Assembly (NCBI GenBank): GCA_963205105.1
Contig: CAUJJW010000337.1
Coordinates: forward strand, 5,909-69,908
Source: Verrucomicrobiota bacterium
Lineage (GTDB): Bacteria; Verrucomicrobiota; Verrucomicrobiia; Limisphaerales; CAIMTB01
DNA: 64,000 nt
Direction of reading: 5' to 3'
The position numbers and the translations under genes are program-made. Shown one piece after another: positions 6,486 through 43,320 of this stretch. How positions within the stretch are numbered: position 1 is the first letter of the stretch; the number at the start of each line of letters is the position of its first letter. The notes under the pieces are model-generated. The model did no database searches. It had not been told where the DNA came from and saw nothing but the letters and a program-made list of their open reading frames with translations.

Positions 6486-8861
6486 TTACCGCAGCGGTTC
6501 CACGAGGTAAAAGGAAGCGTTTGGGGTCGCATCAGCGGTTTCGTCGATGAACCGGATCGATGTGCCCGTGGCGATGATTTCATGCAGCACCGTCGTCGTA
6601 GGATCGCTGAGCGAATGCCGTCGCAGGACCCGGTATTTCACGCCCGGCACCGAAGGGAACTGAAGTTCGGGTAGAGCCCGTATCCCCACACGGAAACCAG
6701 ATGTGGCATCGAGAGGATCCGAGCCCGCGAGGAACTCCTGTCGGTTGTCCGAACCATCCCCATCCGGATCGGCGGTTTGATGAGCCCTTGGATCATAACG
6801 GAATTCGGATCCAAAGAATTGTTCTCGCCAAGTGTTCGGAATGCCGTCGGCGCCGAACACAAAGACGCGGCGGAAGGTGGCGGAAACGACCTCGCTGACG
6901 GGGAACTCGTTGAAGAAGGCAACCACCCTGACCGTGGTGGATTCCGTGACCGGGATAGGTGCCGTATACGCCGTGTCGGCGGAGGTAGGATCGGTTGCGT
7001 CAAGGGTGTACCGTAGCGTGGTCCCAGCCAGACGGCTGACCAAGTTCACATCGACGCGGTTGGTGAAGTCACCGCCGCCGGGAAATATCCCGACACCAGG
7101 GTCAGCCTGGAACACAGCAGTGAAGGTTTCGCTGGCGGGGAAGCCGTTGATGAAAAGCCTCACTTTGACGGTGGTGGTCCGAACGAGTGTGAACGGGTCG
7201 GAGTAGAGGGGGCTTGCGAGTGTCGGTTCAGAGGCGTCGGTGGTGTAACGGATCGCGGCGCCCGGCGACTGGGACCGAAGGGTAACCACGACCTGGTTGG
7301 TGAAGGTGCCGCCATTGGGGAGGATGGAGAGGAGGGGGGATGTGGTGCTTTCAGTCACCGTGAGGCGTTGGCTGGGCGCGATATTGGTCAGTTGCTGGGT
7401 GAGGCCGGAAGGCCACTCCACCGTGATGCGCTCAACAATGGCCGCATCGCCGAGTCCAAAGTGGGCGATCAGTTCGGGGCTTCCCCAACCATCGCCCGAG
7501 GTGATCTCGCGCATTTGCCAAACGGGAACTCCCCGGACTCGGGTCAGCAGGCGCACCTTGGTTCCGATGCCGCTGGAGTTTGAGGGATTGCCCTGGCATT
7601 GCACCTTGAGCCAGGTATTGGCATTCCCGCGATTGCGAAAGAGCTCATTGGATTGCCCATCCCAGTTGGCAACGACCAGATCCAGGAAGCCATCGTTGTT
7701 GTAGTCACCCCAGGCACATCCATTGGAGGCACGGATCGATTCGACGGTCGGATCGTTGACGATACGGACAAAGGATCCGTTCCCCAGATTTCGGTACAGG
7801 AAGTTGCGGGTGCCACGGTTGGCGATGTAGAGGTCGAGCCAACCGTCGTTGTCGTAGTCTCCCCACATGGCGCCAACGATGGGGGACTGATCCTGGACCA
7901 GCGCCGACGACGAAATCCGGGAGAAGCCTTCGATTCCCTCATTGCGATAGAGCGAGGATGTGTAGGGCGCCCCGTGTCCAACAAAGAGATCGAGGTCGCC
8001 GTCATTGTCGTAATCACCCCAGGCGACCGTGCTGGAGGAGGCGGTCTGTGAATCGAAGGGCGGTCGCGTGTTGCGCTCAAATCGTCCGCCGCCCTGGTTG
8101 TGGAAGAGGATGCCGACCTCATTCCATCCATTCCCGACGTACAAATCCGGTAACCGATCGTTGTCGTAGTCGCCCCAGCCTGCACCGAGCGAGTAACCGG
8201 CGGCGGTGACCACCGGACTGTCCTGGACGGCGATAAACCTTCCGTCGGGGAGATTCCGCCAGAGTTGTTCCGGTGCCTGGTTTCCACCCCCGCCGTAACT
8301 GACGAGCAGGTCCAGGCGGCCATCGTTGTCGAAGTCGGCCCAACCGCCCGCATAGGCCCCAAGTGTGCCGTTCGCAGCCACCAGATCGATTGATGGGGCG
8401 AAGGCGCCGTTGCCAAGGTTTCGGTAGATGCGGGTGCCGAAGTTGAAATCGTTGACGAACAGATCGAGAAGCCCGTCGTTGTTGTAATCACCCCAGCCGG
8501 CGCCGATGTGTTCGCCGGGGGCCTGAACGGGTGGGGAGTTTCGAATTCGAGTGAATCCACTGGAGCCATCATTTCGATAGAGGGCATTCGTATGGCCGCG
8601 GAGGTGGGTGACGAACAGGTCAATGTCCCCGTCATGGTCGTAGTCGCCCCAGGCTGTGGCGATGGCCTGGCCGGTGTCTTCGACGAGGGGACCGGTGGTG
8701 ATTCGCTCGAACAAACTGGTCGATGCACCTGAGGTTGTGGCGAGCGTGGTGAACGGCGGCTTACTCCTTTCGCCGGGTTGTTCCCCCAAGGAAACCAGCG
8801 TCCCAATGTTAAGAAGCAGGGTCAGGGTGCATGGACGGAGGATGGCGAGGATGGTGCTCAT
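6486..8861 (-). CDS. FG-GAP/VCBS-repeat (CRTAC1/ASPIC-UnbV-like) surface protein with 2x chitobiase-C-like domains and a TSP3-type C-terminal tail
   Basis: Many 'WGDYDNDG.LDL' repeats, 'IRYTTDASEPT' and 'LRYTLDATDPT' domains, and 'DPDGDGSDNRQEFLAGSDP'. Start set at ATG 8861 (signal-like 'MSTILAILRPCTLTLLL'). Confidence 0.8.
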   Translation of the reverse strand: MSTILAILRPCTLTLLLNIGTLVSLGEQPGERSKPPFTTLATTSGASTSLFERITTGPLVEDTGQAIATAWGDYDHDGDIDLFVTHLRGHTNALYRNDGSSGFTRIRNSPPVQAPGEHIGAGWGDYNNDGLLDLFVNDFNFGTRIYRNLGNGAFAPSIDLVAANGTLGAYAGGWADFDNDGRLDLLVSYGGGGNQAPEQLWRNLPDGRFIAVQDSPVVTAAGYSLGAGWGDYDNDRLPDLYVGNGWNEVGILFHNQGGGRFERNTRPPFDSQTASSSTVAWGDYDNDGDLDLFVGHGAPYTSSLYRNEGIEGFSRISSSALVQDQSPIVGAMWGDYDNDGWLDLYIANRGTRNFLYRNLGNGSFVRIVNDPTVESIRASNGCAWGDYNNDGFLDLVVANWDGQSNELFRNRGNANTWLKVQCQGNPSNSSGIGTKVRLLTRVRGVPVWQMREITSGDGWGSPELIAHFGLGDAAIVERITVEWPSGLTQQLTNIAPSQRLTVTESTTSPLLSILPNGGTFTNQVVVTLRSQSPGAAIRYTTDASEPTLASPLYSDPFTLVRTTTVKVRLFINGFPASETFTAVFQADPGVGIFPGGGDFTNRVDVNLVSRLAGTTLRYTLDATDPTSADTAYTAPIPVTESTTVRVVAFFNEFPVSEVVSATFRRVFVFGADGIPNTWREQFFGSEFRYDPRAHQTADPDGDGSDNRQEFLAGSDPLDATSGFRVGIRALPELQFPSVPGVKYRVLRRHSLSDPTTTVLHEIIATGTSIRFIDETADATPNASFYLVEPLR

Positions 8862-11630: not shown

Positions 11631-12560
11631 TCACCGCGTTGTCGGTGATGCCGAGAACGATTCCAGCGCGCGGATCGCCGCATCGACCGTCAAACCCGCC
11701 TGGGTTCGCAGGTACTCCTGAGAACCGACCACCGAGGTCAGTGTTTCGGGCACGATCAGACTCCTCATCCGAATTCCGTCCGGGGCGAGTTCACGCAGAA
11801 GCGATCCGAACCCGCCGGCGAGCACGTGCTCCTCGAAGGTGACGATCCGCGGGTACTTCCAGAGTTCTGCGAAGGCTTCGCGATCCGCGGGTTTGAGTCG
11901 GGAACAGGAGAAGACCGTGACCGGTTGTCCCTGGGCGGCGAGGCGTTCGGCGGCTTCCAAGGCGACGGAAAGTACCGAACCGGTGGCCGCGAAAGCGATG
12001 GAGGCAGGGCCGGCGGATGCGGGCTTCGACACCCGGATCGGTCCGAGAGAGCTTCCCTGGACGGTGTGAAGCGTCTTTTCGCCGGCTTTGCCCAGGCGCA
12101 AGTAGGACGGGCCTGGATTCTCAGCCAGCCACTGCACCGCTTCGGCGGCTTCGCCGGGATCAGCGGGGCTGAGGAGCGTCAGGTTCGGCAGCGGACGAAG
12201 CGCGGCGATGTCATGGATGCCGTGGTGTGAGAAACCGAGATTGCCGTAGGCCAGACCGGCACCGACGGCGACCACGGTGACGGGCAAACGGTGGTAACAA
12301 ACGTCGTTCCGGATCTGTTCCAGGCATCGGAGCGTCGGGAAATTCGCGATGGAATAGGTGAAGACGTGCCAGCCCTCCGAGGCGAGGCCGGCGGCGAGCG
12401 AGGTCATGTTCTGCTCGGCGACACCGGCGTTCAGGAAGCGGTCAGGGAACTCGGAAGCGAAGGGTTCGACGACCGAGTAGCCGAGGTCGCCGACAACCAG
12501 GAAGATCCGGGGATGCGTCCGGGCCTGGCGGATGAGCTCCTGAATGAAGGCGGTCCGCAT
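11631..12560 (-). CDS. Transketolase, C-terminal (pyrimidine-binding) subunit
   Basis: 'FLNAGVAEQNMTSLAAGLASEGW.VFTYSIANF' and length match split transketolase B subunits. Confidence 0.85.
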   Translation of the reverse strand: MRTAFIQELIRQARTHPRIFLVVGDLGYSVVEPFASEFPDRFLNAGVAEQNMTSLAAGLASEGWHVFTYSIANFPTLRCLEQIRNDVCYHRLPVTVVAVGAGLAYGNLGFSHHGIHDIAALRPLPNLTLLSPADPGEAAEAVQWLAENPGPSYLRLGKAGEKTLHTVQGSSLGPIRVSKPASAGPASIAFAATGSVLSVALEAAERLAAQGQPVTVFSCSRLKPADREAFAELWKYPRIVTFEEHVLAGGFGSLLRELAPDGIRMRSLIVPETLTSVVGSQEYLRTQAGLTVDAAIRALESFSASPTTR

Positions 12561-12563
12561 GGG

Positions 12564-13397
12564 TCAGTCGGGGCAGCCGAGTTGGCGAAGGGCATCGGCG
12601 AGCTGTGCCGGGCTGGGAGACTTGTAATGCCACGCCAGCTGATCCTGCATGAAGTCGACGCCGCGCCCCTTGGTGGTGTGGGCGATGAGGCAGGAAGGAC
12701 GGCCGGGTTCCCAGGGGACGGTTTCGAGAGCGTCCCGAATGGCGTTGTGGTCATGGCCAGCGACCTCGCGGACGGCCCAGCGGAAGGCGCGGAACTTGTC
12801 GGCGAGCGGGTGGAGTTCGGCGACCTCGGCAACGGAGCCGAGGCTTTGGATTTTGTTGTAGTCGACGAGGGCGACCAGGTTGTCGAGGCGATGTTGGGGG
12901 GCGAGCAGGATGGCTTCCCAATTGGAACCCTCGTCGAGTTCGCCGTCGCTGAGCAGGGTGAAGACGCGCCAGGGTTTGCGATCGCGTTGAGCGGCGAGGG
13001 CTTTGCCGAGTCCGAAGGGAAGGCCGTGTCCGAGAGAACCGGTACTGAACTCGACGCCGGGAACCTTGTGGCTGATGTGGGCCATGAGGCGGGAGCCGTC
13101 CTGGCCGTAAGTCGCGAGTTCGCTTTCAGGGAAAAAGCCGCGGAGGGCGAGCGTGGCGTAGACGGCGGTGCAGCTGTGTCCCTTGCTCAGGAGGAAACGA
13201 TCTCGATCGGGCCAATCGGGCTGATCCGGGCGGTGACGAAGGACGCCGGAGTACAGCACGGCGAGCAGATCGGCCATCGAGAGGGCGCCTGCGACATGGG
13301 AAGCCTTGGCGCGGGTGACCATGCGCAGGGCATGGGCGCGAATGGCGGCGGCGAGGTCGACACTGGAGCGAATGGTTGGGGCAGGTTCTGTGCGCAC
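12564..13397 (-). CDS. Transketolase, N-terminal (ThDP-binding) subunit
   Basis: 'RDRFLLSKGH', 'GSLGHGLPFGLG', 'LLSDGELDEGSNWEA', 'VDYNKIQ'. The ORF track starts at 13571, but 13402-13474 is a REP repeat, so I propose GTG 13397. The start is uncertain. Confidence 0.75.
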   Translation of the reverse strand: MRTEPAPTIRSSVDLAAAIRAHALRMVTRAKASHVAGALSMADLLAVLYSGVLRHRPDQPDWPDRDRFLLSKGHSCTAVYATLALRGFFPESELATYGQDGSRLMAHISHKVPGVEFSTGSLGHGLPFGLGKALAAQRDRKPWRVFTLLSDGELDEGSNWEAILLAPQHRLDNLVALVDYNKIQSLGSVAEVAELHPLADKFRAFRWAVREVAGHDHNAIRDALETVPWEPGRPSCLIAHTTKGRGVDFMQDQLAWHYKSPSPAQLADALRQLGCPD

Positions 13398-13401
13398 GGT
13401 T

Positions 13402-13474
13402 ACTGAACCGGGTGGCCCGCCGGGCGAGACGCCCGACTCTACGGCAGGCGGGACGCCCACCGCTACCGAGGGTA
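13402..13474. repeat. REP-like double-hairpin unit
   Basis: 'cgggcgagacgcccg.ctctacggcaggcgggacgcccaccgctac' ending in 'ggttcatgg'. Same family as 30716-30780 and 45316-45382. Confidence 0.8.
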
Positions 13475-13503
13475 GGTTCATGGGCAGAGGCTCGGACATC
13501 CGG

Positions 13504-15117
13504 TCAGCGGGCGAGGATGTCGCGGATTTGGGCGCAGACGTAGGCGACCTCTTCGCGGGCGAGGCAGACACCGCTGGGCAGGTTGATGGCGCGCAGTCCG
13601 ATGCGCAGGGCGTTGGGCTGGGGCGTCTGGGGTGTGGGCCAGATTGGGTATTGGCTGATGGCAGGGAACACCGCGCGGGTGTCGACCTTGCGAGCCTTGA
13701 GTTCCTTCATGAGATCGTCGCGGGAAATGGGGGACGATTCATGCACCAGAATGCTGGTCATCCAATAGATGCTCCGCGCCCAGGAAGCTTCCCGGTTGAG
13801 GGAGAGATGTGGCACACCGGCGAGACCTTCTTCGTACCAGCGGAAGACGCGGCGCTTGGCTTCGACCATGGCGTCGTTGCGCTCGAGTTGGCCGAGGCCG
13901 ATGGCGGCGAGAGTGTTGGCCAGTTTGTATTTCCAGCCACGGTGGGCGATCCAGAAGGTGCCGGGCACGCGGCCTTGATCCCAAATCGTATAGACCTTCT
14001 TGTAGAGTTCGTCGTCGTTGGTCAGGAGCATCCCGCCCTCCCCGGTGACGGCGAGTTTGGCCCCCTGGAAGCTGAACGCGGCGAAATGGCCAAAGGAGCC
14101 GGTTCGCCGTCCGAGAACTTCCGCGCCGATCGACGGGGCGGCATCCTCGACAACGGAAAGGCCGTGTTCGTTGGCGATCTTGAGGATTTCGTCCATGCGG
14201 CAGGGATGTCCGTACAAGTGGACGGGCATGACTGCCTTGGTGCGGGGCGTGATCTTGGATCGGAACGATTCGGGATCGAGGGTCCAGGTCTCGGGGTCGA
14301 CATCGGCGAACACCGGTGTGGCGCCGACATAAAGAACTGCGTTGCCGGTGGCGACCCAGGTGATGTCCGGAACGATGACTTCGTCGCCGGGTCCGATGCC
14401 GAGGGCGGCGAGGGCGAGGTGAAGGGCTCCGGTGCAACTGGAGGTGGCGAGGGCGTACTTGGCGCCGATGTACTGGGCGAACGACTGCTCGAAGGCCTTG
14501 AGGTACTTGGCCCATTGATCGTTCCAGCCGTACTTGGCGGCATCGAAGGCGTAGGAAGCCTCGCGCGCGGAGATGGACGGGCCGGCGGTGAGGATCATCT
14601 TTTCGCCTCCGCGCCAATTCGCCCGGCGGCTCAGGACGATTGGGTCGTCGCCAGGCTGGCTGGTTGCCGCAAGGGAATCGGAGCGGATGGGCAGATCACG
14701 GATCGCGTCGCCGAAGAGCGTGCGAAGTGAGGAGAGCGACGCCGTGCAGTGTTCCGGCCAGAGGGTTTCCTCGGACCACCGGACGATTTCGCGCACGGCC
14801 TCGGCGAGTTCACCTCCGCACGGATCCCCATCAACCTGGGCGAGGGTGAGGTTGGGAGCGGAAAGCTGGAGGACCACCCGGCCGCGGTTTTGGAGGGTTT
14901 TTGAGACGACGAGGAACGCGCACTGGTCGGGGTTGGCGAGAATGGCGTCGTCGGCGGGGGAAGTGCGGTTGGCCTGGGTGAGGGGGACGGCGAGTCCTCC
15001 GGAGGTGGGGAGGTGTAGGCCGCGGCTGAAGGTGCCTTCGAGGTGGTTGGCGGCCTTGAGGAAGGCGAACTCCCGGCGCACGCTGGTGGCGAAGGAGGAC
15101 GGGGGAACGGTGTTCAT
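13504..15117 (-). CDS. DegT/DnrJ/EryC1/StrS-family sugar aminotransferase with a ~170-aa N-terminal extension of unknown function
   Basis: The C-terminal ~360 aa carry 'ATSSCTGALHLALAALGIGPGDEVIVPDITW' and 'FSFQGAKL'. The start at 15117 leaves a 16-nt gap to the upstream gene. Confidence 0.8.
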   Translation of the reverse strand: MNTVPPSSFATSVRREFAFLKAANHLEGTFSRGLHLPTSGGLAVPLTQANRTSPADDAILANPDQCAFLVVSKTLQNRGRVVLQLSAPNLTLAQVDGDPCGGELAEAVREIVRWSEETLWPEHCTASLSSLRTLFGDAIRDLPIRSDSLAATSQPGDDPIVLSRRANWRGGEKMILTAGPSISAREASYAFDAAKYGWNDQWAKYLKAFEQSFAQYIGAKYALATSSCTGALHLALAALGIGPGDEVIVPDITWVATGNAVLYVGATPVFADVDPETWTLDPESFRSKITPRTKAVMPVHLYGHPCRMDEILKIANEHGLSVVEDAAPSIGAEVLGRRTGSFGHFAAFSFQGAKLAVTGEGGMLLTNDDELYKKVYTIWDQGRVPGTFWIAHRGWKYKLANTLAAIGLGQLERNDAMVEAKRRVFRWYEEGLAGVPHLSLNREASWARSIYWMTSILVHESSPISRDDLMKELKARKVDTRAVFPAISQYPIWPTPQTPQPNALRIGLRAINLPSGVCLAREEVAYVCAQIRDILAR

Positions 15118-15133: not shown

Positions 15134-16237
15134 TCAGGTCAATTCGCGGATACGCCGACAGACGAGCGCAACGTCCTCTTCGGTGAGGCAGAATGCGCCC
15201 GGCAGGAGCACGCCATGGGTTTCGATGAGGGCGCAGACCGGGGTGTCGCCCTTGTGTTGAAACATGGGCATCGGGCTCTGGCGGGGCTGAGCGGGGCGGG
15301 CGTCGATGTTGTCGAGCTTGAGCTTGGCGAAGAGCTCGGCGCGGGTCACCCGGGCGCCAGGCTTCAGCAGCATGGGCGGGTAGCAGTAAGTGCTCTTGGT
15401 TCCCGGGGCCTCGCGAATGAGCTTCACGTTGGGGGCATCGCCGAGGCGCGCTTCATACCAGGCCCAGATCTGGCGCTTCTTGGCCAGCAGTTCCTCGATG
15501 CGATCCATCTGCGCCGCGGCGAGGGCTGCCGGCAGGTTGGGCATGCCGTAGTTGAAGCCGATGAAATCGGACCAGTAGGTCATGACCGAGTCGGTGCGGC
15601 CATAGGAGGCGAGCTGTCGGGCCTTGAGAATGGCGTCGTCGCGGTTGGTCACGAATGCGCCGCCCTGGCCGGCGATGGCGATCTTGGCGCCCTGAAAGCT
15701 GAACGAGGCGGTATCGCCGAGGGTGCCGATTTTGCGACCACGGTATTCGGCTCCGAGGGCTGGGGCGCCGTCCTCCATGACCACGAGCTGGTGTTTTTGG
15801 GCGATGTCGAGCAGATCGTCCATGGCGCAGGGGTGCCCGTTCCAGTGGACGGGCATCAGGGCCTTGGATCGGGGTGAGAGACAGCGGCGGACGGAATCGG
15901 GGGCGAGACACCAGGTTTCGGGATCGACGTCGGCGAAGATGGGGGTGGCGCCGGTGTAGGCGACGGCGAGGGCGGTGGCGACGCAACTGGCGTCGGGCAC
16001 GATCACTTCATCGCCGGGGCCGATGCCGAGGCTGGCGAGCCCGAGGTGCATGGCGGCGGTGCCGGAGTTCACGGCCAGGCAGTGGCGGACGCCGAGATAC
16101 TCGCAGATCTTCTTTTCGAGTTTCGAGGCGTGGAGGCGGTAGTTCTCGTAGAAGCCGTTTTGGGCGGCCTCGGCCACGGCGGCGACTTCGGCCTCGGTGA
16201 TCCAAGGGCCGGCGTAGTGAATTTTGCGCTGGGACAT
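15134..16237 (-). CDS. DegT/DnrJ/EryC1/StrS-family sugar aminotransferase
   Basis: 'NSGTAAMHLGLASLGIGPGDEVIVPD', 'FSFQGAKI'. 367 aa is a canonical length. Confidence 0.85.
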   Translation of the reverse strand: MSQRKIHYAGPWITEAEVAAVAEAAQNGFYENYRLHASKLEKKICEYLGVRHCLAVNSGTAAMHLGLASLGIGPGDEVIVPDASCVATALAVAYTGATPIFADVDPETWCLAPDSVRRCLSPRSKALMPVHWNGHPCAMDDLLDIAQKHQLVVMEDGAPALGAEYRGRKIGTLGDTASFSFQGAKIAIAGQGGAFVTNRDDAILKARQLASYGRTDSVMTYWSDFIGFNYGMPNLPAALAAAQMDRIEELLAKKRQIWAWYEARLGDAPNVKLIREAPGTKSTYCYPPMLLKPGARVTRAELFAKLKLDNIDARPAQPRQSPMPMFQHKGDTPVCALIETHGVLLPGAFCLTEEDVALVCRRIRELT

Positions 16238-16243
16238 CGCGGG

Positions 16244-16912
16244 TTAGAAATGACGTTCGCCTGGTTGTCGGCTGCGCACGACGCGGGCAGGCACGCCGTA
16301 GGCAAGACTAAGCGGGGGCACGTCCGCAAGCACGACGGAGCCAGCGCCGATGACGGTGTGGGCTCCGACGTGGACCTTGTGGGCGAGGGTGGCGCCGAGG
16401 CAGACGCAGGAAAACTCGCCGATTTCGACGTTGCCTCCGGTGACGACGCCGGGCAGGAGGCAGGACCAGGGGTGCAGGATCCCGTCGTGATCGAGGGAGG
16501 CCCTGGTATTAACGATACAACCGGTACCGAGGCGGCAATTTGTGTTCACCACGGCCCCGGCGAGGGCGAGGGTACCGGCGCCGACTTCCACATCTCGGGC
16601 GATGACGGAAGCGGGGTGGAGGATGCTGAACAACTCCAGGCTTGGACGGAGCTGTTGGATCATGTCGTGGACCTTGGCGCGGGTGGTGTTGTCGCTGATG
16701 GCGAGGAAGTACCCATCCAGGCGATGCTCGCGGGCCAGGGCATCGAGCTCTGCGGGTTTGCCGAGCACCTGGAGGCCGGCGAGTTCAGTGCCGGCAGCGA
16801 CGAAGGTATCGGTCCAGCCGACGAGGTCGAAGCGGTCCTGGCAACGGGCGGCGTCGAGGGCCACGCGGCCATGGCCGGAGGCTCCGACAAGGACGATTCG
16901 GGGGCGGGTCAT
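16244..16912 (-). CDS. Hexapeptide-repeat sugar N-acetyltransferase (NeuD/PglD family)
   Basis: N-terminal Rossmann-like 'IVLVGASGHGRV' followed by left-handed beta-helix repeats. Confidence 0.8.
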   Translation of the reverse strand: MTRPRIVLVGASGHGRVALDAARCQDRFDLVGWTDTFVAAGTELAGLQVLGKPAELDALAREHRLDGYFLAISDNTTRAKVHDMIQQLRPSLELFSILHPASVIARDVEVGAGTLALAGAVVNTNCRLGTGCIVNTRASLDHDGILHPWSCLLPGVVTGGNVEIGEFSCVCLGATLAHKVHVGAHTVIGAGSVVLADVPPLSLAYGVPARVVRSRQPGERHF

Positions 16913-16921
16913 GGGAGGGGT
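16865..16921. repeat. 57-bp direct repeat, copy 1 (includes the acetyltransferase start codon)
   Basis: Identical base for base to 17563-17619: gcggccatggccggaggctccgacaaggacgattcgggggcgggtcatgggaggggt. Confidence 0.95.
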
Positions 16922-16976
16922 GTGATCGCTGGGTCAGTTCATTGACAACGCCTTGGGAAGGGCGGCAAGTTCCCGC

Positions 16977-17210
16977 ATGGCGTCGCTGCTTAACCGAATC
17001 ACCATCGATCCGGATGTGTGCCACGGCAAACCGGTGATTCGCGGGCTTAGATATCCGGTCGAGAGTGTTCTTGAGTACCTCGCGGCCGGCGACTCGATCG
17101 AGGACGTGCTGGTGGATTTCCCTGACCTGCAACGGGAAGACCTTCTTGCTTGCTTGGAATTTGCGACTCGCTCGTTGCAGGTTCGAAGCCAGCACCTCGT
17201 GTTGACGTGA
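16977..17210 (+). CDS. DUF433-family putative antitoxin
   Basis: 'ITIDPDVCHGKPVIRGLRYPVESVLEYLAAGDSIEDVL.DFPDL..EDL' is the DUF433 signature. Its stop overlaps the partner start (GTGA). Confidence 0.75.
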   Translation: MASLLNRITIDPDVCHGKPVIRGLRYPVESVLEYLAAGDSIEDVLVDFPDLQREDLLACLEFATRSLQVRSQHLVLT

Positions 17211-17560
17211 AGTTCGTGGTCGATGCGCATCTGCCCTTTCGCCTTTGCGAGCTGCTCGTTGCCGCAGGTCATGATTGCGTGCACACGACCCAACTTCCTG
17301 ACGGCAATCGAAGTGCTGACGTAACCCTGATTCAGCTCGCAGTTGCGGAAGGTCGGGTACTCGTCTCGAAGGATGCCGACTTCTATTATGCCTACCTGAC
17401 GGGCCGAGAGTCGTTTCGCCTGCTCCTGGTTCGAACCGGCAACCTTCGCTCCGCGGCCTTGATCGATCTGTTCGGGAGACATCTGGAGGAAATCCTTCAG
17501 GCGCTGAGCAGCCACTCGTTGGTCGAACTGCATTCCATAGGGCCTCGGGCATGCCGCTGA
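17207..17560 (+). CDS. DUF5615-family (PIN-like) putative toxin
   Basis: 'KFVVDAHLP..L...L...GHD..H' N-terminus. GTG 17207 overlaps the DUF433 stop codon by 4 nt. Confidence 0.65.
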   Translation: MKFVVDAHLPFRLCELLVAAGHDCVHTTQLPDGNRSADVTLIQLAVAEGRVLVSKDADFYYAYLTGRESFRLLLVRTGNLRSAALIDLFGRHLEEILQALSSHSLVELHSIGPRACR

Positions 17561-17562
17561 AT

Positions 17563-17619
17563 GCGGCCATGGCCGGAGGCTCCGACAAGGACGATTCGGG
17601 GGCGGGTCATGGGAGGGGT
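17563..17619. repeat. 57-bp direct repeat, copy 2 (abuts the rfbH stop codon)
   Basis: Identical to 16865-16921. It carries a now-orphan copy of the acetyltransferase start and first 15 codons. Confidence 0.95.
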
Positions 17620-19307
17620 TAGCGCCGACAAAACCGGGTGATGGTGTCGGTGGTGTGCTCCAGCATGGCGTCGGTGAGGCCCGGATAGACGCCGATGAAG
17701 ACGGATTCGTTCATGATGCGATCCGCGCCTGCCAGATCGCCAACGACCCGGAACGCGGAGGGGTTGTCGCGTCGGAGCTGAACAAACGCAGGCTGCCGAA
17801 GCAGATTCCCTCCGAAGAGCATGCGGTTGCCGATTTTGGCGGCGTCGAGGGCCCGGGCGAAGTCGCGGCGTGAGAACGGGGCGTCGGGTCGGACGCGCAT
17901 CATGAACCCGAACCAGCTGGGGGTGGTGCGGTGGCCGGATGTGTCCCAGGAAAATCCCTGAGCGGGGCTCCAGCCGGTGGCATGGGTGGGCAATTGGAAC
18001 TCGAGCACACCCTCGAGCGGTGCAAGCTCGGTGCGCAGGCGGTTCCAGGTCTGGCTGCGGGCCTGGACGAAGGCCGGGAGTTTACGCAGTTGGGCCCGGC
18101 CGATCGCCGCCTGGGGGTCCAGGGGCTTCAAGTTATAGCCGAGGTGGCTGTAGATGTATTTGTGGTCGTAGCCCTCGGGGAGTTCGCCGAGCTGCCAGCC
18201 AAAGCGCTTGTTGCAGGTGTTGTCCTTGCCGCTGGGGCACCAGCAATCACGGCCCCAATCGCGGAAACTCTCGACGAGGGGTTTCAGGCGGGATTCGCGG
18301 ACGATGCTGACGGCGCCGCCTTCCCCGAGCGTGAGGTGATGAGGAGGGTAAAACGACTGAGTGGAAAGGTCGCCGAACGTCCCGGTCAGGCGGTCGTCGT
18401 AGCGACTGCCGAGGGCATCGCAATTGTCTTCGATGAGCCAGAGCTGATGGCGGCGGCAAAACTCGGTGACGGTCGCGAGTTCGAAGGGATTGCCGAGCGT
18501 GTGGGCCATGAAGACGGCCTTGGTCTTTCCCGGAACGAAGGCTTCTTCCAGTTGGTCGTGACGGGCGTTGAGCGTGACGGGGTCGTTGTCGATGAACACC
18601 GGCACGAGGCCATTTTGGAGGATGGGTGCGACGGTGGTGGGGAAACCGGCGGCGACGGTGATGATCTCATCACCGGGACGAAGGCGCCGGTCGCCCAGCT
18701 TGTGGCTGGTGAGGGCGCTGACGGCGAGCAGGTTGGCGGAGGAACCGCTGTTGACCAGGAGTGTGCGGCGCACGCCGAGGTAGGCGGCCAGTTCGGTCTC
18801 GAAGGCGTCGCCCTCGGGTCCGAGGGTGAGCCAGAAATCGAGGGTTGCGGAGACCGCGGCTTCGACTTCATGGGTGTCGAAAACGCGACCGGCGTAGGGG
18901 ACGGTGGTCTGGCCCGGCGAGAAGGGGTCGCGTCCGTCGAGTTGATCGCCGGGTCGCTGGTTGGCGTGTTGAAGGCGCGAGAATGAGCGAGTGTGCTGAA
19001 GAGCGATGGCCCGGTGGATTTCGGCCAGTTTGGAGGGGCGAAGGCGGATGGGCTGAGCCGAGAAACCGCTGGTGTGGAGGGTGGTCAGTCGGTCGCTGCG
19101 CACCACCAGCGGCGAAGGCAGCGTGCCCTCGGCGACGTCGGCGGGTGTCAACACCAGTAGGCCGGGTGGCTCCGTCGGTTCGGTCAGAGGTGCGAGTAGA
19201 AGGAAGCCTTGAGCGTCGGGCTCACCCAGCGCGATGGCCTGACTGGCAGCGGAGAGCTCTGGAAGGTTGGGGTTTGGTAGGGCAACGAGCCGGCCGGCGA
19301 GATTCAT
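17619..19307 (-). CDS. rfbH: RfbH/DdhC-like PLP/PMP-dependent CDP-4-keto-6-deoxyglucose 3-dehydrase with an N-terminal extension
   Basis: 'LVNSGSSANLLAVSALTSHKLGDRRLRPGDEIITVAAGFPTTV' and the C-terminal region match RfbH-type proteins. Start set to ATG 19307 (38-nt gap to rfbG); ATG 19388 is the alternative. Confidence 0.75.
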   Translation of the reverse strand: MNLAGRLVALPNPNLPELSAASQAIALGEPDAQGFLLLAPLTEPTEPPGLLVLTPADVAEGTLPSPLVVRSDRLTTLHTSGFSAQPIRLRPSKLAEIHRAIALQHTRSFSRLQHANQRPGDQLDGRDPFSPGQTTVPYAGRVFDTHEVEAAVSATLDFWLTLGPEGDAFETELAAYLGVRRTLLVNSGSSANLLAVSALTSHKLGDRRLRPGDEIITVAAGFPTTVAPILQNGLVPVFIDNDPVTLNARHDQLEEAFVPGKTKAVFMAHTLGNPFELATVTEFCRRHQLWLIEDNCDALGSRYDDRLTGTFGDLSTQSFYPPHHLTLGEGGAVSIVRESRLKPLVESFRDWGRDCWCPSGKDNTCNKRFGWQLGELPEGYDHKYIYSHLGYNLKPLDPQAAIGRAQLRKLPAFVQARSQTWNRLRTELAPLEGVLEFQLPTHATGWSPAQGFSWDTSGHRTTPSWFGFMMRVRPDAPFSRRDFARALDAAKIGNRMLFGGNLLRQPAFVQLRRDNPSAFRVVGDLAGADRIMNESVFIGVYPGLTDAMLEHTTDTITRFCRR

Positions 19308-19345: not shown

Positions 19346-20470
19346 TTATTTGGCCCAAGGCAGACCCGCTTCCTGGGCGCGGCCGCAAAAGGCCTGGATT
19401 TGGTCCTGAGTTAGCTGGATGGCCTTGGAGGGCTCTTGGGCGTGCGCGACATCGAAGTACCAGCGCAGGGTTTCACGGACGGAATCGGTGAAGGTCCAGA
19501 CCGGGCGCCATCCCAGCAGGGCGTGGGCTTTGTCGATCGACAGGTGAAGCAGCGTGGCTTCGTGAGGGGCTTGGGGGTCGCTTCCGTCGATCCATTCGCC
19601 GGGGACGAATTTCCTGGCTTCCTCGACCAGGTCGTGGACGGAGCGGTTGGAATCGGAGGAGGGGCCGAAGTTGAACGCCGATTCGAGGGGGGAACCGTTG
19701 GCGGGTTGGCGGGCCAGTTGGGCGGCAAGCCAGAGGTAGCCTGAGAGGGGTTCCAACACGTGCTGCCAGGGGCGGGTGGCACGGGGGTTGCGTATGCGAA
19801 GCGGCCGGTTGGCGATCCAGGCCCGGGCGCAATCCGGGACGATGCGGTCCTCGGCCCAGTCACCGCCGCCGATGACATTCCCGGCGCGAGCGCTGGCGAT
19901 GCGGACGGGGTGATTGCGGAAGAAGGATTGGCGCCAGGTCGCGACGGCGATTTCGCTGGCGGCCTTGCTGGCGCTGTAGGGGTCGGCGCCGCCGAGTGGA
20001 TCATTTTCGCGATACCCGAAGAGCCATTCCCGGTTCTCGTAGCACTTGTCGGTGGCCACCATGACGGCGACGCAGGGCTTCTGGAGGGTGCGAAGCGCTT
20101 CCAGGACGTGGATCGAGCCGAGGACGTTGGTCTGCCAGGTGGCGAGGGGTTCGCGGTAGGAGCGTCGGACGAGGGGTTGAGCGGCGAGATGGAAGACGAA
20201 GTCCGGTTGGGATTCGGCGATGACCCGTCGGATGCCGTCGGCGCTGCGGATGTCGCCGAAGATGCTGTCGAGGCGATTGGCGAGCTGGAGTTGGGTGAAG
20301 AGGGAGGGATCGGTTTCGGCTGGAAGTCCGAGGCCGGTGACGTTGGCTCCCAGGCCGAGCAGCCATTCACAGAGCCAGGAGCCTTTGAACCCGCTATGCC
20401 CGGTCACGAGGACCCGTTTGCCGGCGTAGGTTTCGGCAAGGGGAGCTGGAGCGGAGAGAGTAGCGGTCAC
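19346..20470 (-). CDS. rfbG: CDP-glucose 4,6-dehydratase
   Basis: 'GKRVLVTGHSGFKGSWLCEWLLGLGANVTGL', an SDR YxxxK core, ~370 aa. Confidence 0.9.
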   Translation of the reverse strand: MTATLSAPAPLAETYAGKRVLVTGHSGFKGSWLCEWLLGLGANVTGLGLPAETDPSLFTQLQLANRLDSIFGDIRSADGIRRVIAESQPDFVFHLAAQPLVRRSYREPLATWQTNVLGSIHVLEALRTLQKPCVAVMVATDKCYENREWLFGYRENDPLGGADPYSASKAASEIAVATWRQSFFRNHPVRIASARAGNVIGGGDWAEDRIVPDCARAWIANRPLRIRNPRATRPWQHVLEPLSGYLWLAAQLARQPANGSPLESAFNFGPSSDSNRSVHDLVEEARKFVPGEWIDGSDPQAPHEATLLHLSIDKAHALLGWRPVWTFTDSVRETLRWYFDVAHAQEPSKAIQLTQDQIQAFCGRAQEAGLPWAK

Positions 20471-20483
20471 GGGAACGGGACGG

Positions 20484-21266
20484 TCACCAGACTTTCCAGG
20501 GGGCCTTGCCTTCGGACCAGAGCCCGTTGAGGTAGGTCATCTCCTGGTAGGTGTCCATGGGCTGCCACCAGCCCTCATGCTTGTAGGAGTGGAGTTGACC
20601 GTCGTCGAGGAGGTTTCCGATGGGGCCTCGTTCGAAGGCGACGGTGGGGTCGTCGGGGAGGTACTCGAAGATCTTGTGTCCGCAGACCATGAAACCGCCA
20701 TTGACCCAGACGGCTTCCACCTGGGGTTTTTCGTGGAACCGGTGGATTTGGCCGTCTTCATGGAGCGCCATCATGCCGAAGCGACCGGCGGGGTGGACGG
20801 CGCTGATGGTGACGATGCGTCCGGCTTTTTCGTGGGCGGCGATGCTGGCGTTGATGTCGATATTGGAGAGTCCATCGCCGTAGGTCATGAGGAACGGTTC
20901 ACCGGGCTGAAGGTAGCGGCGGATCTGGCGGAGGCGATGGGCGGTCTGAGATTCCAGGCCGGTGTCGGCGAGGGTCACGGACCAGTCCTCCTCTTCGTGG
21001 TGATCGTGGAACTTGGCTCCGGGTTTGCGGCCGAGCGAGATGGTGACGTCGCAGCGGTTCCAGAGGTAGTTCCGGAAGTAATCCTTGATCATGTCGCCCT
21101 TGTACCCGAGGCAGAGGATGAAATCCCGATGCCCGTGGTGGGCATAGTATTTCATAATGTGCCAGAGGATCGGCTGGCCGCCGATGGGGACCATGGGTTT
21201 GGGGCGGAACTCGGTCTCCTCGCGGAGCCGGGTGCCTTTGCCACCACAGAGAATCACGACCTTCAT
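20484..21266 (-). CDS. rfbF: Glucose-1-phosphate cytidylyltransferase
   Basis: 'MKVVILCGGKGTRLREETEFRPKPMVPIGGQPILWHIMKYY' from ATG 21266. Confidence 0.9.
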   Translation of the reverse strand: MKVVILCGGKGTRLREETEFRPKPMVPIGGQPILWHIMKYYAHHGHRDFILCLGYKGDMIKDYFRNYLWNRCDVTISLGRKPGAKFHDHHEEEDWSVTLADTGLESQTAHRLRQIRRYLQPGEPFLMTYGDGLSNIDINASIAAHEKAGRIVTISAVHPAGRFGMMALHEDGQIHRFHEKPQVEAVWVNGGFMVCGHKIFEYLPDDPTVAFERGPIGNLLDDGQLHSYKHEGWWQPMDTYQEMTYLNGLWSEGKAPWKVW

Positions 21267-21331
21267 GATTGCAGCGCTGCGAGGCGTGAGCGTGCCGTGA
21301 GGCATGGCGTCACGGCAATGGAGAAGGCAGC

Positions 21332-22252
21332 TCAGGGTTGGCGACGGCGGCCGTGGAAAAAGAGGCGCTTGAGGAACCACCACCAGGCTTGGGGTTGCCT
21401 CAGGGCGTGGAGATTGTCCCGAATGTAGCGGATCGGGTGCCGGGTGATCTTGCGCACGAGCTCGCGTCGAATGTGTTCGATGGCCAGCTCCGGACGGAGT
21501 TCCGGCACATCGAACTGGCCGCGAAGCCAGCCCAGGTATTCGAGCCAGCTCCGTTCCAGGTCGGTGGGCCAGACGGCGTCGACTGCCGGGGCGCGGCTGT
21601 CGCGGACCTGAATCGTGGGAAACGCCGCGACCTGGATGGCGCCACCTTGCTGCTGAAGGCCACGAGCCATGCCGTACATGTGCAGGAAATCGGTCGCCTC
21701 CTTCTCCTTGGCGAAGATCCGATCAAAGGCATTGGCCCGGTAGATGTTGGAGCTGGTCAGGGTGTGCTCGACGAGGGCGTGCGTGTGGACCCGTGCACAT
21801 TCGCGGATGTAATCACGATAGGTCGCAAACCGGGCGGGGCGCTGGATACGAGGGTTGTAGCGCGTGTCGAAGTGGATCAGCAGGCTGAGTGCCGGGTCGT
21901 CGCGCAGTGTTTTCAAGGAATGCGCAAGGCCGCCGGGAAGCAGGAGGTCGTCGTCCCCGATGATCCACAGATACTGGCCAGCGGCGTGATGGACGAGCTT
22001 ATGGTAGTTGCCACGGGCCCCGATGTTCTCCTCGTTGCGCCAGTATCGCAGGATCGGAAGCCGAGCCGCGACGGACTGGGCCAATGTGCCGGTGTCATCG
22101 GTGGACGCGTTGTCCGAGACGAGGATTTCGAGGCCGCATTCGGCCACGATGGGTTCGCGGGCCTGGACTTCCAGGGCCTCGAGCAAATCGCGCAGGTATC
22201 CGGCGCGATTGCGCGTGGGGATGCCGATGGTCAGGAGCACACGTTCCATCAA
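21332..22252 (-). CDS. Family-2 glycosyltransferase
   Basis: 'LTIGIPTRNRAGYL', 'VSDNASTDDT' and 'IIGDDD' GT-A motifs. Confidence 0.8.
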   Translation of the reverse strand: MMERVLLTIGIPTRNRAGYLRDLLEALEVQAREPIVAECGLEILVSDNASTDDTGTLAQSVAARLPILRYWRNEENIGARGNYHKLVHHAAGQYLWIIGDDDLLLPGGLAHSLKTLRDDPALSLLIHFDTRYNPRIQRPARFATYRDYIRECARVHTHALVEHTLTSSNIYRANAFDRIFAKEKEATDFLHMYGMARGLQQQGGAIQVAAFPTIQVRDSRAPAVDAVWPTDLERSWLEYLGWLRGQFDVPELRPELAIEHIRRELVRKITRHPIRYIRDNLHALRQPQAWWWFLKRLFFHGRRRQP

Positions 22253-23113: not shown

Positions 23114-24316
23114 TCAAACCTCGCCGATGTGGTGGATCGCTTCCTGGGCGACGGTGGCGCCGATGGCGAGGGAGGCGGTGGCAGCGGGGGACGGGGCGTT
23201 GCAGATGTGGATCACGTTGCCGTCGATGCGGATGTCGAAGTCGTCGAGCAAACGGCCTTCCCGGTCACAGGCCTGGGCTCGAATCCCCGCTCCGCCGGGG
23301 TCGAGGTCGGCGGCGGTGATGTCGGGGATGAGGCGTTGAAGGGCCCGGACAAAGGCGGCCTTGCTCCAGGATCGGCGGAATTCGCCGAGTCCGGTGCGCC
23401 AGTATTTGCGGGCGACGATGCGAAATCCGGGCCAGGCGAGGGTTTCGAGAGTGTCGCGGAGGTGGAAGTCCGTTTTCCGATAAGCTTCCCGACCAAAGGC
23501 GAAGACGGCGTTGGGGCCGCATTCGATACCGCCACGGATCATCCGGGTGAAGTGGACGCCCAGGAAGGGGAAGGCGGGGTCTGGAACGGGGTAAATGAGG
23601 TTGCGGACGAGATGATGGGCGGCGGGTTTGAGCACGTAATACTCGCCGCGGAAGGGTGTGATGCGCAGCGGCAGGTCGGGATGGGTGAGGCGGGCCACCC
23701 GATCGGAGTGCAGGCCGGCACAGGTGACGAGCACCCGGCCGGTCCAGGTGCGATGGGCACTGGCCACCTCGATGGCGGTGTCCTTGCGGCGGATGGCTTC
23801 GATGCGTTGTCCAAAGATGATCTCTCCGCCGAGTTCGCGGATTTTATCGGCGTACTTTTCCGCCACGGCGGTGTAGTCGACGATGCCGGTTTGGGGGACC
23901 CAGAGGCCCTGGATGCCGGTGCAATGGGGTTCGATCTCGCGGATTTCGGCGGAGGAGAGGGTACGGAGGCCGGCGAGACCGTTGGCTTCGCCGCGGCGCT
24001 GGAGTTCGGCGAGGCGGGGCAGTTCGGATTCGGAAGTGGCGACCACGATTTTGCCGCAGAGATCATGGGGGATGCCTTCCTTGCGGCAGAAGTCGATGAG
24101 TTGCTGGTAGCCGGTGCGGCAGTTGGCGGCTTTGAGTGAGCCGGGCTTGTAGTAGAGGCCGGAGTGGATGACGCCGCTGTTGTTGCCGGTTTGGTGCCGG
24201 GCGGGGGCGGGTTCCTTTTCGATCAGAACGAGCCGTGTGGCCGGGCGGCATTGGAGGAGGCGAAAGGCGGTGGCGAGACCGACGATGCCGCCGCCGACGA
24301 TGAGGACATCAGTCAT
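23114..24316 (-). CDS. lhgO: FAD-dependent L-2-hydroxyglutarate oxidase/dehydrogenase
   Basis: 'DVLIVGGGIVGLATA', 'NSGVIHSGLYYKPGSLKA', ~400 aa. Confidence 0.8.
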   Translation of the reverse strand: MTDVLIVGGGIVGLATAFRLLQCRPATRLVLIEKEPAPARHQTGNNSGVIHSGLYYKPGSLKAANCRTGYQQLIDFCRKEGIPHDLCGKIVVATSESELPRLAELQRRGEANGLAGLRTLSSAEIREIEPHCTGIQGLWVPQTGIVDYTAVAEKYADKIRELGGEIIFGQRIEAIRRKDTAIEVASAHRTWTGRVLVTCAGLHSDRVARLTHPDLPLRITPFRGEYYVLKPAAHHLVRNLIYPVPDPAFPFLGVHFTRMIRGGIECGPNAVFAFGREAYRKTDFHLRDTLETLAWPGFRIVARKYWRTGLGEFRRSWSKAAFVRALQRLIPDITAADLDPGGAGIRAQACDREGRLLDDFDIRIDGNVIHICNAPSPAATASLAIGATVAQEAIHHIGEV

Positions 24317-24370
24317 GGGAGGGGGCGCTTTTCAAAATGAGGACACGGAGAGGGAGTATGTACCGCGGCG

Positions 24371-24598
24371 CAAGGAATGGAGCGGGCGGCCCTCATCCCG
24401 GCCTTCTCCCGGAGGGAGAAGGAGAAAATGCGCCGCGAGTTTCGAGGGGTTGAGCAAAGCGTTGGCTGGAACGAGTTGATGCGGCTCGCGCGGATGGGGT
24501 TTGAGCGCGGGACGACGGGTGGAGGCGCGACTCCCTCTCCCTCCGGGAGAGGGTCGGGGTGAGGGAGCCGGTTTGCATCCTCGCGATAGCTGGCATGG
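24371..24598. repeat. REP-like mosaic (hairpin modules R2 and R3)
   Basis: 'gagcgggcggccctcatcccggccttctcccggagggagaaggagaa' and 'gactccctctccctccgggagagggtcggggtgagggagcc'. Copies at 33511-33705, 43095-43285 and 44945-45135. Confidence 0.8.
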
Positions 24599-30580: not shown

Positions 30581-30967
30581 GCAATCGGTTCGAAATGGAT
30601 CTGCTCACCGATCATGAAACCGGGGGAGGCGGGGGGATTACGATGACGATGAGGAGTAGGAGTACGTGGACGAGGGGAGGCGCGATTCATTAATCGCGCA
30701 TGGGGACCATGAACCGAGGATTCCGGGGGGCGAGACGCCCCCCTCTACGGCAGGCGGGACGCCCGCCGCTACGGAGGCCCGGAGGGGCGATCAGAATCGA
30801 CCGCGGTGGGGTTGGTATTTAGCGGAACGCAGGATGTTCTGCCCGCCCCTGCTTTTCTGATCGCCCCTCCGGGGCTTCTGGTTTCCTTCGGGCCTTGTCC
30901 CCACGGCTCACGCCGTGGGCTCGTGCTCTTCCGCCCCGTCCGGGGCTGGGAAATCGAAGTTCATGGG
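30581..30967. repeat. REP-like mosaic, including a ~210-bp composite colinear with 45175-45396
   Basis: Modules 'ttcgaaatggatctgctcacc', 'aggagtaggagtacg', 'gattcattaatcgcgc' and the GTAG double hairpin at 30716-30780. Further hairpin-rich sequence runs to 'gttcatggg' at ~30960. Confidence 0.75.
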
Positions 30968-33467: not shown

Positions 33468-33485
33468 CGTGGACGTTCGGCTCGC

Positions 33486-33824
33486 GGACCATGAACCGGG
33501 GTGCGAGGAGTCGAGCGGGCGGCCCTCATCCCGGCCTTCTCCCGGAGGGAGAAGGAGAACATGCGCCGCGGGTTTCGGAGGGTCGAGCTGAGCGTTGGCT
33601 GGAACGGGTCGCCACAGCTCGGATGGTTGGGGTTTAGGCGTGTTGCGGAGGGTAGCGCGCGACTCCCTCTCCCTCCGGGAGAGGGTTGGGGTGAGGGAGC
33701 CTGTTTCAACCCTCGCGACGGCTCGCATGGGAAGCCCCCTGTTCGAAATCGACCTGCTCACGGACCAGGCACCAGGGATTCCGGGGGGCGAGACGCCCGC
33801 CGCTACGGAGTTGCGGTTCATGGG
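33486..33824. repeat. REP-like mosaic inserted between the ATPase and the permease-repressor gene
   Basis: Order R2, R3, spacer module, GTAG hairpin, bounded by 'ggaccatgaacc' and 'ggttcatgg'. The ytgB-like stop codon lies inside the terminal motif. Confidence 0.85.
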
Positions 33825-42900: not shown

Positions 42901-43320
42901 TGGTTCATGGAGAGTCCCCTGTTCGAAATCGACCTGCTCACGGCCCTTGAACCCGGGATTCCGGGGGGCGGGACGCCCCCCTCTACGGCAGGCGAGACGC
43001 CCCCCGCTACGGAGGCGCGGTTCATGGAGAGGAGCGTTTTCCAAGAATTGGACACGTATTGGGACCATGAACGGTGGAGCGAGGAATGCAGCGAGCGGCC
43101 CTCACCCCGGCCCTCTCCCGGAGGGAGAGGGAGAATAGTTCCCGCGGGTTTCGAAGGGTTGGGCCGGGTGTTGGCTGGAACAAGTCGTGTCGGCTCGGAC
43201 GGTTGGATTTCTGGCATGTCGCCGTGCGGGATATGCGGCTCCCTCTCCCTCCGGGAGAGGGTTGGGGTGAGGGTGCCCGTTTCACCCCCCGCGACGGCTT
43301 CCTGGGTGAGCTTCATGGGG
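42901..43320. repeat. REP-like mosaic
   Basis: Spacer module, GTAG double hairpin (42956-43016), R2 and R3, delimited by 'ggttcatgg', 'gaccatgaac' and 'cttcatgggg'. The stop of 43313..43933 lies in the last motif. Confidence 0.85.

Follow-up and report, generated by a model that had tools for sequence, protein, structure and literature searches.

Insertion with long target duplication has been described for restriction-modification modules that carry no mobility gene and lie between direct repeats of 46-423 bp (Nobusato et al. 2000, Gene 259:99; Furuta, Abe & Kobayashi 2010, PMC2853133). In the cases set out in these accounts, the module is compact and of the addiction type, the repeats far exceed the target duplications of transposons, the repeated sequence is single-copy in genomes without the insert and sometimes overlaps the ends of genes, and the G+C content of the insert is deviant (PMC2853133). 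The authors leave the process itself unexplained, suggest that DNA breaks made by the cargo play a part, and propose that the modules cycle through insertion, amplification and release by way of the repeats (Nobusato et al. 2000; PMC2853133). PIN-COG2442 (DUF433) systems are known as a class of type II toxin-antitoxin (TA) systems (Makarova, Wolf & Koonin 2009, PMC2701414). We analyzed a 64-kb stretch of DNA from a Verrucomicrobiota bacterium (here called the window; probably from a metagenome-assembled genome [MAG]), in which a cassette with a predicted TA module of this class lies in a glycan operon, between the genes rfbH and a sugar acetyltransferase gene, flanked by two copies of a 57-bp direct repeat. 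We consider it likely that the cassette is an old, single insertion that duplicated its target, that the TA genes have been under purifying selection since, and that the two repeat copies have been homogenized by gene conversion.

We found that the two copies of the repeat (copies A and B; Table 1) are identical at 57/57 positions. The number of such repeats expected from 100 shuffles was 0, and the pair is the sole perfect long repeat within the window. Read on the operon strand, each copy contains the A that ends the TAA stop codon of rfbH, an 8-nt spacer (CCCCTCCC), and the ATG and 15 further codons of the acetyltransferase gene (MTRPRIVLVGASGHGR). An earlier note on this DNA had described a perfect 57-bp duplication of the junction between the rfbH stop and the acetyltransferase start. 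That description holds, except that the repeat includes 16 codons of the gene and not the first 15. The note was also right that exactly 641 bp (16922-17562) separate the copies, and that the acetyltransferase gene has an intact start while an orphan start adjoins rfbH; both flanking genes stay intact.

The cassette encodes two overlapping genes on the strand opposite to the operon. Their products match DUF433 (COG2442) and the PIN-like family DUF5615 (Pfam E values of 2e-25 and 2e-19, respectively), and the antitoxin stop and toxin start overlap in a GTGA. The G+C content of the cassette is 0.58, compared to 0.65 in the flanks. From these matches we predict that the cassette is a type II TA module of the PIN-COG2442/DUF433 class, antisense to the operon. 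The gene pair, its coupling, its lower G+C content and its antisense insertion in a glycan operon had all been read in the same way in the earlier note.

Relatives without the cassette have a single junction. Loci on related contigs are designated by L-numbers. Scanning species-representative genomes with the acetyltransferase gave L001 and L002, both from Verrucomicrobiota MAGs (protein identity of 85% and 83%); a third empty locus, L012, is on a Logan contig and has an acetyltransferase 91% identical to that of the window. A scan of metagenome contigs with the same protein, in a collection without relevant samples, yielded only distant relatives (33-47% identity). Exact-match look-ups of the acetyltransferase of the window, of the 85-aa form of its antitoxin and of P0034 (100% match) gave no record. 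At the three empty loci, the stop codon of rfbH and the start codon of the acetyltransferase gene overlap, as ATGA in L001 and L012 and as GTGA in L002. Their junctions are homologous to that of the window, which has the spacing seen in L001. Because relatives without the cassette have one junction, the cassette is an insertion. The empty site, which the note had proposed to seek in related genomes, exists in all three.

The insertion is shared with three related, Verrucomicrobiota-like lineages. L007 and L008, on JGI contigs, were found through toxin homologues in a protein database (94% and 84% identity). A third lineage consists of L013 (acetyltransferase 86% identical) and ten near-identical contigs (L032-L041) from JGI and ENA and from different samples. 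All of these have the cassette at the same site, in the same orientation and with the same boundaries. Identity to the window is 92.5% (L007), 86.0% (L008) and 70.5% (L013) for the cassette, and 93.9%, 92.9% and 87.1%, respectively, for the flanks. The cassette and its junctions are collinear base for base in the window, L007 and L008. The L013 cassette is homologous, with indels at its edges (22 nt at the toxin end and 13 nt at the promoter end). After L007 and L008, the database homologues of the toxin are at most 59% identical, and those above 60% are all at this locus.

We used the flanks to place the insertion in time. A bootstrapped neighbor-joining tree of 1335 flank columns joined the window to L007 (bootstrap 95), then to L008 (100), L012 (82) and L013 (99), with L001 and L002 outside. 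Since the insertion is present in the clade that extends from L013 to the window, it predates a nucleotide divergence of ~13%; on this tree it is old and inherited. The empty L012 nests inside the TA-bearing clade. Such a distribution would require either one gain and one loss (in L012) or two gains.

We observed that rfbH has an early stop at one and the same codon in all TA-bearing lineages (TAA in the clade of the window, TGA in L013). This stop is missing at the empty sites L001 and L012, where reading continues to the ATGA overlap with the acetyltransferase start (window 17619-17640, L001 5985-6004, L012 250-272, L013 3270-3293). The early stop is consistent with a need for translational coupling that was lost after the insertion.

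Concerted evolution by gene conversion is known for rRNA operons and for duplicated tuf genes. We found the same kind of pattern in the two copies of the repeat. The duplication is present at every TA-bearing locus, with 54 nt in L007 (98% identity), 52 nt in L008 (96%) and 60 nt in L013 (95%). We compared the copies over 48 nt anchored on the ATG (ATG..+47). Within a genome, copies A and B differ at 0 positions in the window, 1 in L007, 4 in L008 and 1 in L013. Between the diverged lineages (window/L007, L008 and L013), there are 4-8 differences from one copy A to another and 7-9 from one copy B to another; the closest pair, the window and L007, has 0 (A) and 1 (B). Where copy A of the window differs from that of L008, copy B shows the same difference in 4/4 cases; for the window and L013 it does so in 7/8. 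Mirrored differences include synonymous third positions (CGA/CGC, GTC/GTT, GGC/GGT, CAT/CAC). The copies group by genome, not by copy type.

Given one insertion shared by the window, L007 and L008, parallel change in both copies after these lineages split indicates that the copies evolve in concert. The simplest mechanism would be gene conversion. The mismatches that remain are mostly at the edges of the repeat in L007 and L013, as would be expected for conversion tracts, and are at the edges and at two internal positions in L008. The perfect identity of the copies in the window would then be due to a recent conversion and not to a recent insertion. The two copies match as far as +50 in L007; in L013 they match to +53, and a 22-nt indel lies at that edge. 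Judged from these alignments, 57 bp is not a mechanistic constant, and the original duplication was at least ~62 bp.

Several points weigh against an old single insertion with homogenized copies. The nested position of L012 depends on one 1.6-kb contig and a bootstrap of 82%. Synonymous divergence (dS) between the window and L013 is 1.4-1.9 in the TA genes vs ~0.5 in the flanks. This excess may be compatible with exchange of the cassette between lineages or with two gains; it may come from a weaker codon bias in the cassette, or from recombinational exchange of cassette alleles among lineages. The comparison of the window with L007 is mosaic (window 16977-17560, L007 7771-8354), with a dS of 0.64 in the antitoxin gene and 0.12 in the toxin gene. 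In the antitoxin gene, the window is as far from L007 as it is from L008. The mosaic suggests a recombination breakpoint within the TA module. Distant TA homologues in three other contexts lack flanking repeats. The reading also supposes gene conversion between repeats that are 57 bp long and 641 bp apart in the organism of the window, and the founding route given below is a proposed one.

Some of these observations would be accounted for if the cassette were a minimal mobile unit without a recombinase, like those hypothesized for restriction-modification modules, a proposal that we regard as possible but unlikely. A circle of ~700 bp would be excised via the repeats and would re-enter related genomes by a single crossover at the homologous junction. 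Addiction to the toxin would penalize loss, and the model would explain the patchy presence of the cassette, its mosaic structure, and a divergence greater in the TA genes than in the flanks. The orphan copy could, in addition, have been co-opted to regulate the acetyltransferase start via an antisense TA transcript.

A homing, recombinase-free TA element might also have inserted independently into the same site in each lineage, with a fresh duplication each time and no gene conversion. This would fit the clustering of copies by genome, the higher dS of the TA genes and the mosaic cassette of the window and L007, and the empty site nested within the clade. However, we think it quite unlikely. 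Independent events do not readily give cassettes and junctions that are collinear to the base in the window, L007 and L008, and homologous save for the edge indels in L013. The copies are imperfect in L007, L008 and L013, unlike fresh duplications. In addition, homologues above 60% identity occur only at this locus, there is no second cassette within the 64-kb window, and the homologues at three other sites have no flanking repeats.

Alternatively, selection on a function of the RNA might keep the copies alike: TA transcription reading through copy B would give an RNA that is antisense to copy B and complementary to copy A, the initiation region of the acetyltransferase gene, and that could regulate it in trans. 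The toxin stop is 2 nt from copy B with no terminator after it, TA and operon transcription converge, and the co-variation of the copies includes synonymous positions. In contrast to this expectation, 4 changes within the 48 nt (8 in the 57-bp repeat) are private to copy B of L008 and unmatched in copy A, and co-variation of direct repeats is a textbook signature of gene conversion that needs no function. We consider an RNA-level function decidedly improbable.

The earlier note had taken the perfect identity of the copies as an argument for a recent event. A recent, transposition-like insertion in the genome of the window, with a 57-bp target-site duplication, would agree with the 57/57 identity, the lower G+C content of the cassette, and the lack of a recombinase. 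But the same insertion is present in lineages that differ by 6-13% in the flanks and by 7.5-29.5% in the cassettes (identities of 92.5/86.0/70.5%), and the length of the repeat varies, from 57 bp in the window to 59 bp in L007 and ~60 bp (95%) with a 22-nt edge indel in L013. The copies in the relatives are slightly diverged. The note had named in advance what would speak against a recent insertion, namely relatives that carry the same arrangement with diverged repeat copies, and L007, L008 and L013 are such relatives. We therefore regard a recent insertion as very improbable.

An assembly artefact, such as a k-mer-sized loop, deserves practically no credence: 57 bp is near common k-mer sizes and the window is probably metagenome-assembled, but the same structure with different sequence occurs in 13 other contigs (L007, L008, L013, L032-L041) from JGI and ENA and different samples, and these independent assemblies of three other lineages indicate that the duplication is real.

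An old insertion with a duplicated target raises the matter of how the duplication arose. The duplicated segment holds ~9 nt that match the ancestral 3' end of rfbH, which indicates a true duplication of the local target and not a replacement gene end supplied by a donor. The note had reported that no recombinase is present, and we likewise found no transposase, integrase or recombinase gene in the ~12.7 kb that are syntenic between the window and L008, or among the neighbors in L007 and L013. There were no terminal inverted repeats (end-to-end inverted alignment score of 7 vs a shuffle mean of 7.2) and no tRNA target at the site. An Rfam scan gave nothing beyond sub-threshold snoRNA matches, taken as noise, within the acetyltransferase gene. 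The note had called the mechanism of the insertion unclear; insertion with long target duplication is, however, a described class for restriction-modification modules.

We considered whether a flanking duplication is a hallmark of the TA family and rejected this. Around the homologues in the three other contexts (L014-L031; toxins 54-58% identical), flanking repeats do not exceed 11 nt. By this comparison, the duplication belongs to this insertion event and not to the TA family.

We also noted, ~7 kb upstream of the L008 operon (L008 15648-16354), a reverse-transcriptase gene (RVT_1; group II intron-like by eye) for which the window has no counterpart.

We suggest the following course of events. 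The ancestor of a small Verrucomicrobiota-like clade would have gained a self-contained TA module, with its own upstream region, exactly at the translationally coupled junction of the rfbH stop and the acetyltransferase start. At least 57-62 bp of target would have been copied in the event; counted from the acetyltransferase ATG, this segment runs from about -9 to +48/+53 or beyond. With the target duplicated, rfbH kept its end and the acetyltransferase gene kept its full initiation region, and the copy beside rfbH would have become an orphan start. The TA genes would then have been kept by purifying selection, which their substitution rates show (below), and the repeat copies would have been homogenized repeatedly within each genome by gene conversion, a mechanism we infer from the pattern of mirrored differences. 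L012 could then be empty through scar-free loss, by way of the repeats or by allelic recombination in the flanks. The founding route would most likely have been either host-mediated repair of a staggered break (fill-in) or a template switch during replication that captured a TA fragment, the same process as that proposed for restriction-modification modules. Later spread would be possible through an excised circle of repeat and cassette, integrated by a homology-driven single crossover.

We found that the TA module has been maintained. Both genes are intact in the four lineages (77 and 117 aa), the GTGA overlap (17207-17210) is kept in all four, and the ratio of non-synonymous to synonymous substitution rates (dN/dS) lies at 0.03-0.06 (antitoxin) and 0.07-0.24 (toxin). 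The low ratios, together with the kept lengths and overlap, indicate maintenance by selection. The antitoxin also matches PDB 2GA1 (E 5e-6). An alternative in-frame start, TTG at 16953, would give an antitoxin of 85 aa; the JGI annotation of L007 calls the 77-aa form. The toxin also matches PIN_10 (26.8 bits, cut-off 26.2) and Mut7-C. Its residues D6 (VDAH) and D55/D57 (KDxDF), candidates for the acidic residues of the PIN-like site, are invariant in the four toxins.

Upstream of the antitoxin gene, a block (GTTCATTGACAA) that holds a TTGACA box is conserved in the four lineages despite a cassette identity of only 70%. On the strength of this conserved box, TTGACA might be the -35 element of a TA promoter; the TA transcript is predicted to begin without a leader, near 16977. 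Scans for a sigma-70 promoter consensus and for intrinsic terminators gave no match in or beside the cassette.

The orphan start in copy B of the window opens an open reading frame (ORF) of 37 codons (Table 1). In L008 the ORF has undergone non-synonymous changes, and in L013 its length differs, which indicates that the orphan peptide is not conserved.

In L013 (3294-4004; the same ORF is in L032-L039), the orphan start opens an ORF of 236 aa antisense across the whole TA cassette, with a terminal TGA that overlaps the ATG of the true acetyltransferase start. On otherwise identical sequence, gene callers annotate sometimes this ORF and sometimes the TA pair. We considered the ORF as a bridging gene. 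When synonymous codons were randomized, the frame was still open in 8-35% of the trials, and in the clade of the window it is closed; the ORF is probably due to chance.

The cassette lies in an operon for cytidine diphosphate (CDP)-sugar glycan synthesis genes on the minus strand, in the order cytidylyltransferase, CDP-glucose 4,6-dehydratase, rfbH, cassette, acetyltransferase, two DegT aminotransferases and a split transketolase (Table 1). The names rfbH and acetyltransferase, already used in the note, are backed by NCBIfam matches above the cut-offs: RfbH equivalog at 643 bits (cut-off 423) with Pfam DegT, and TIGR03570 at 172.6 bits (cut-off 160.8) with Pfam PglD_N and Hexapep. The rfbH start at 19307 agrees with gene calls of 562 aa in L008 and L013. 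The order of the downstream genes (aminotransferases and transketolase subunits) is the same in L007, L008 and L013. Among the relatives, dN/dS of the acetyltransferase is 0.05-0.19, and the downstream operon genes are also under purifying selection, which indicates that the insertion has not silenced them.

Table 1. Features of the cassette, the flanking repeats and the surrounding operon in the window
Feature	Position	Strand	Remarks
Inserted cassette, 641 bp	16922-17562		Absent from L001, L002 and L012; alignable over its full length to the cassettes of L007, L008 and L013
Antitoxin, DUF433/COG2442, 77 aa	16977-17210	+	ATG at 16977; Pfam DUF433 E 2e-25, 88.6 bits (cut-off 23.6)
Toxin, DUF5615 PIN-like nuclease (predicted), 117 aa	17207-17560	+	GTG start; Pfam DUF5615 E 2e-19, 69.8 bits (cut-off 23.8)
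TTGACA box	16942-16947	+	29 nt upstream of the antitoxin ATG; candidate -35
Repeat copy A	16865-16921		Functional junction with the real acetyltransferase start, continuous with the 222-aa ORF
Repeat copy B	17563-17619		Orphan junction adjoining rfbH; ATG 17610-17608; homologous copies in L007, L008 and L013
Orphan ORF from the pseudo-start, 37 codons	17497-17610	-	Antisense into the 3' end of the toxin gene
Glucose-1-phosphate cytidylyltransferase	20484-21383	-	NCBIfam equivalog (TIGR02622/TIGR02623 pair with the dehydratase), above cut-off
CDP-glucose 4,6-dehydratase	19346-20470	-	NCBIfam equivalog (TIGR02622/TIGR02623 pair with the cytidylyltransferase), above cut-off
rfbH (CDP-6-deoxy-hexulose 3-dehydrase family, DegT fold), 562 aa	17619-19307	-	TAA stop 17619-17621
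NeuD/PglB/VioB-family sugar acetyltransferase, 222 aa	16244-16912	-	Start ATG 16912-16910
Two DegT-family aminotransferases	15134-16237, 13504-15117	-	Downstream operon genes
Split transketolase subunits	12564-13571, 11631-12560	-	Downstream operon genes

Elsewhere in the window we observed a dispersed, intergenic-looking repeat family of ~100-300 nt (24390-24565, 33523-33697 and 43099-43273), with repeat families also at further coordinates (24277-24576, 33410-33808, 42906-43285, 44838-45384 and 30646-30778). Each dispersed repeat has 35-nt inverted arms (CCCTCACCCCGGCCCTCTCCCGGAGGGAGAGGGAG and its complement) ~105 nt apart, and the elements look like repetitive extragenic palindromes (REP) or miniature inverted-repeat transposable elements (MITE). 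Synteny between the window and L008 stops at ~24365, at one such element. Two regions have periodic repeats within genes: at 7670-8651 a 43-nt unit occurs 7 times at a spacing of ~153-165 nt, and at 56679-57634 there are 5-6 copies at a spacing of ~147-159 nt, with one gap of ~300 nt. They look like tandem repeats of a protein domain, possibly beta-propeller-like.

Our results would extend insertion with long target duplication from restriction-modification modules to a TA pair with a predicted RNA-cutting toxin. Such an extension argues that the mechanism is supplied by host recombination or repair and not by the cargo. The locus would also be a natural case of a 57-bp duplication kept alike by concerted evolution over substantial divergence; in genome scans, perfect identity of flanking repeats is then no clock for the age of an insertion. 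It further suggests that a tightly coupled junction in an operon, once duplicated, can tolerate a selfish module in antisense orientation.

The locus differs from the better-known classes of mobile element. Unlike a transposon or insertion sequence, it has no transposase and no terminal inverted repeats, and its duplication is at least 57 bp and of variable extent, compared to a fixed 2-14 bp. Unlike an integron cassette, it is flanked by repeats of host coding sequence that are not attC-like. It shares with integration by an integrase (attL/attR at the ends of genes) direct repeats of tens of bp and a repeat that restores the interrupted gene. However, there is no integrase here, the insert measures only 641 bp, and what the repeat restores is the 5' end of one gene plus the stop codon of the gene upstream. 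In addition, both copies track the substitutions of the host lineage, which is not expected of an attP copy borne by an element.

The TA genes themselves are ordinary for PIN-COG2442 systems, with a DUF433 antitoxin of ~77 aa upstream of, overlapping and co-oriented with a PIN-like toxin of ~117 aa. They are unusual only in their insertion site and flanking duplication. As in the concerted evolution of rRNA operons and tuf genes, the paralogous copies of the repeat are closer within a genome than are the orthologous copies between genomes. In contrast to those cases, the tract is 57 bp, the copies are 641 bp apart, one copy is non-functional, and a crossover between them would delete an addiction module.

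The closest match is insertion with long target duplication. As delimited in the part of Furuta et al. 2010 (PMC2853133) that defines the class, the repeats are >30 bp and single-copy in an insert-free relative, and the insert is <20 kb, a complete module, and without a mobility gene, tRNA target or dispersed repeat. At our locus the direct repeats are >30 bp (57 bp and 100% identical in the window, 95-98% in the relatives). L001, L002 and L012 have one copy of the junction and no cassette. The 641-bp insert is a complete TA module with no mobility gene or tRNA, and the repeat is unique in the window. The cargo is different, a DUF433 and DUF5615 pair predicted to be an RNase-type TA system and not a DNA-cleaving restriction-modification system. 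Double-strand breakage driven by the cargo does not obviously apply to an RNase-type cargo, and with a predicted PIN-type nuclease a host repair route seems more likely. The TA insertion is also old (~13% flank divergence) and its repeat copies evolve in concert, features that the cited parts of the restriction-modification accounts do not describe. Our findings do not overturn the current understanding of such insertions; compared to the described cases, this one is notable mainly for the long persistence and the concerted evolution of its 57-bp repeat.

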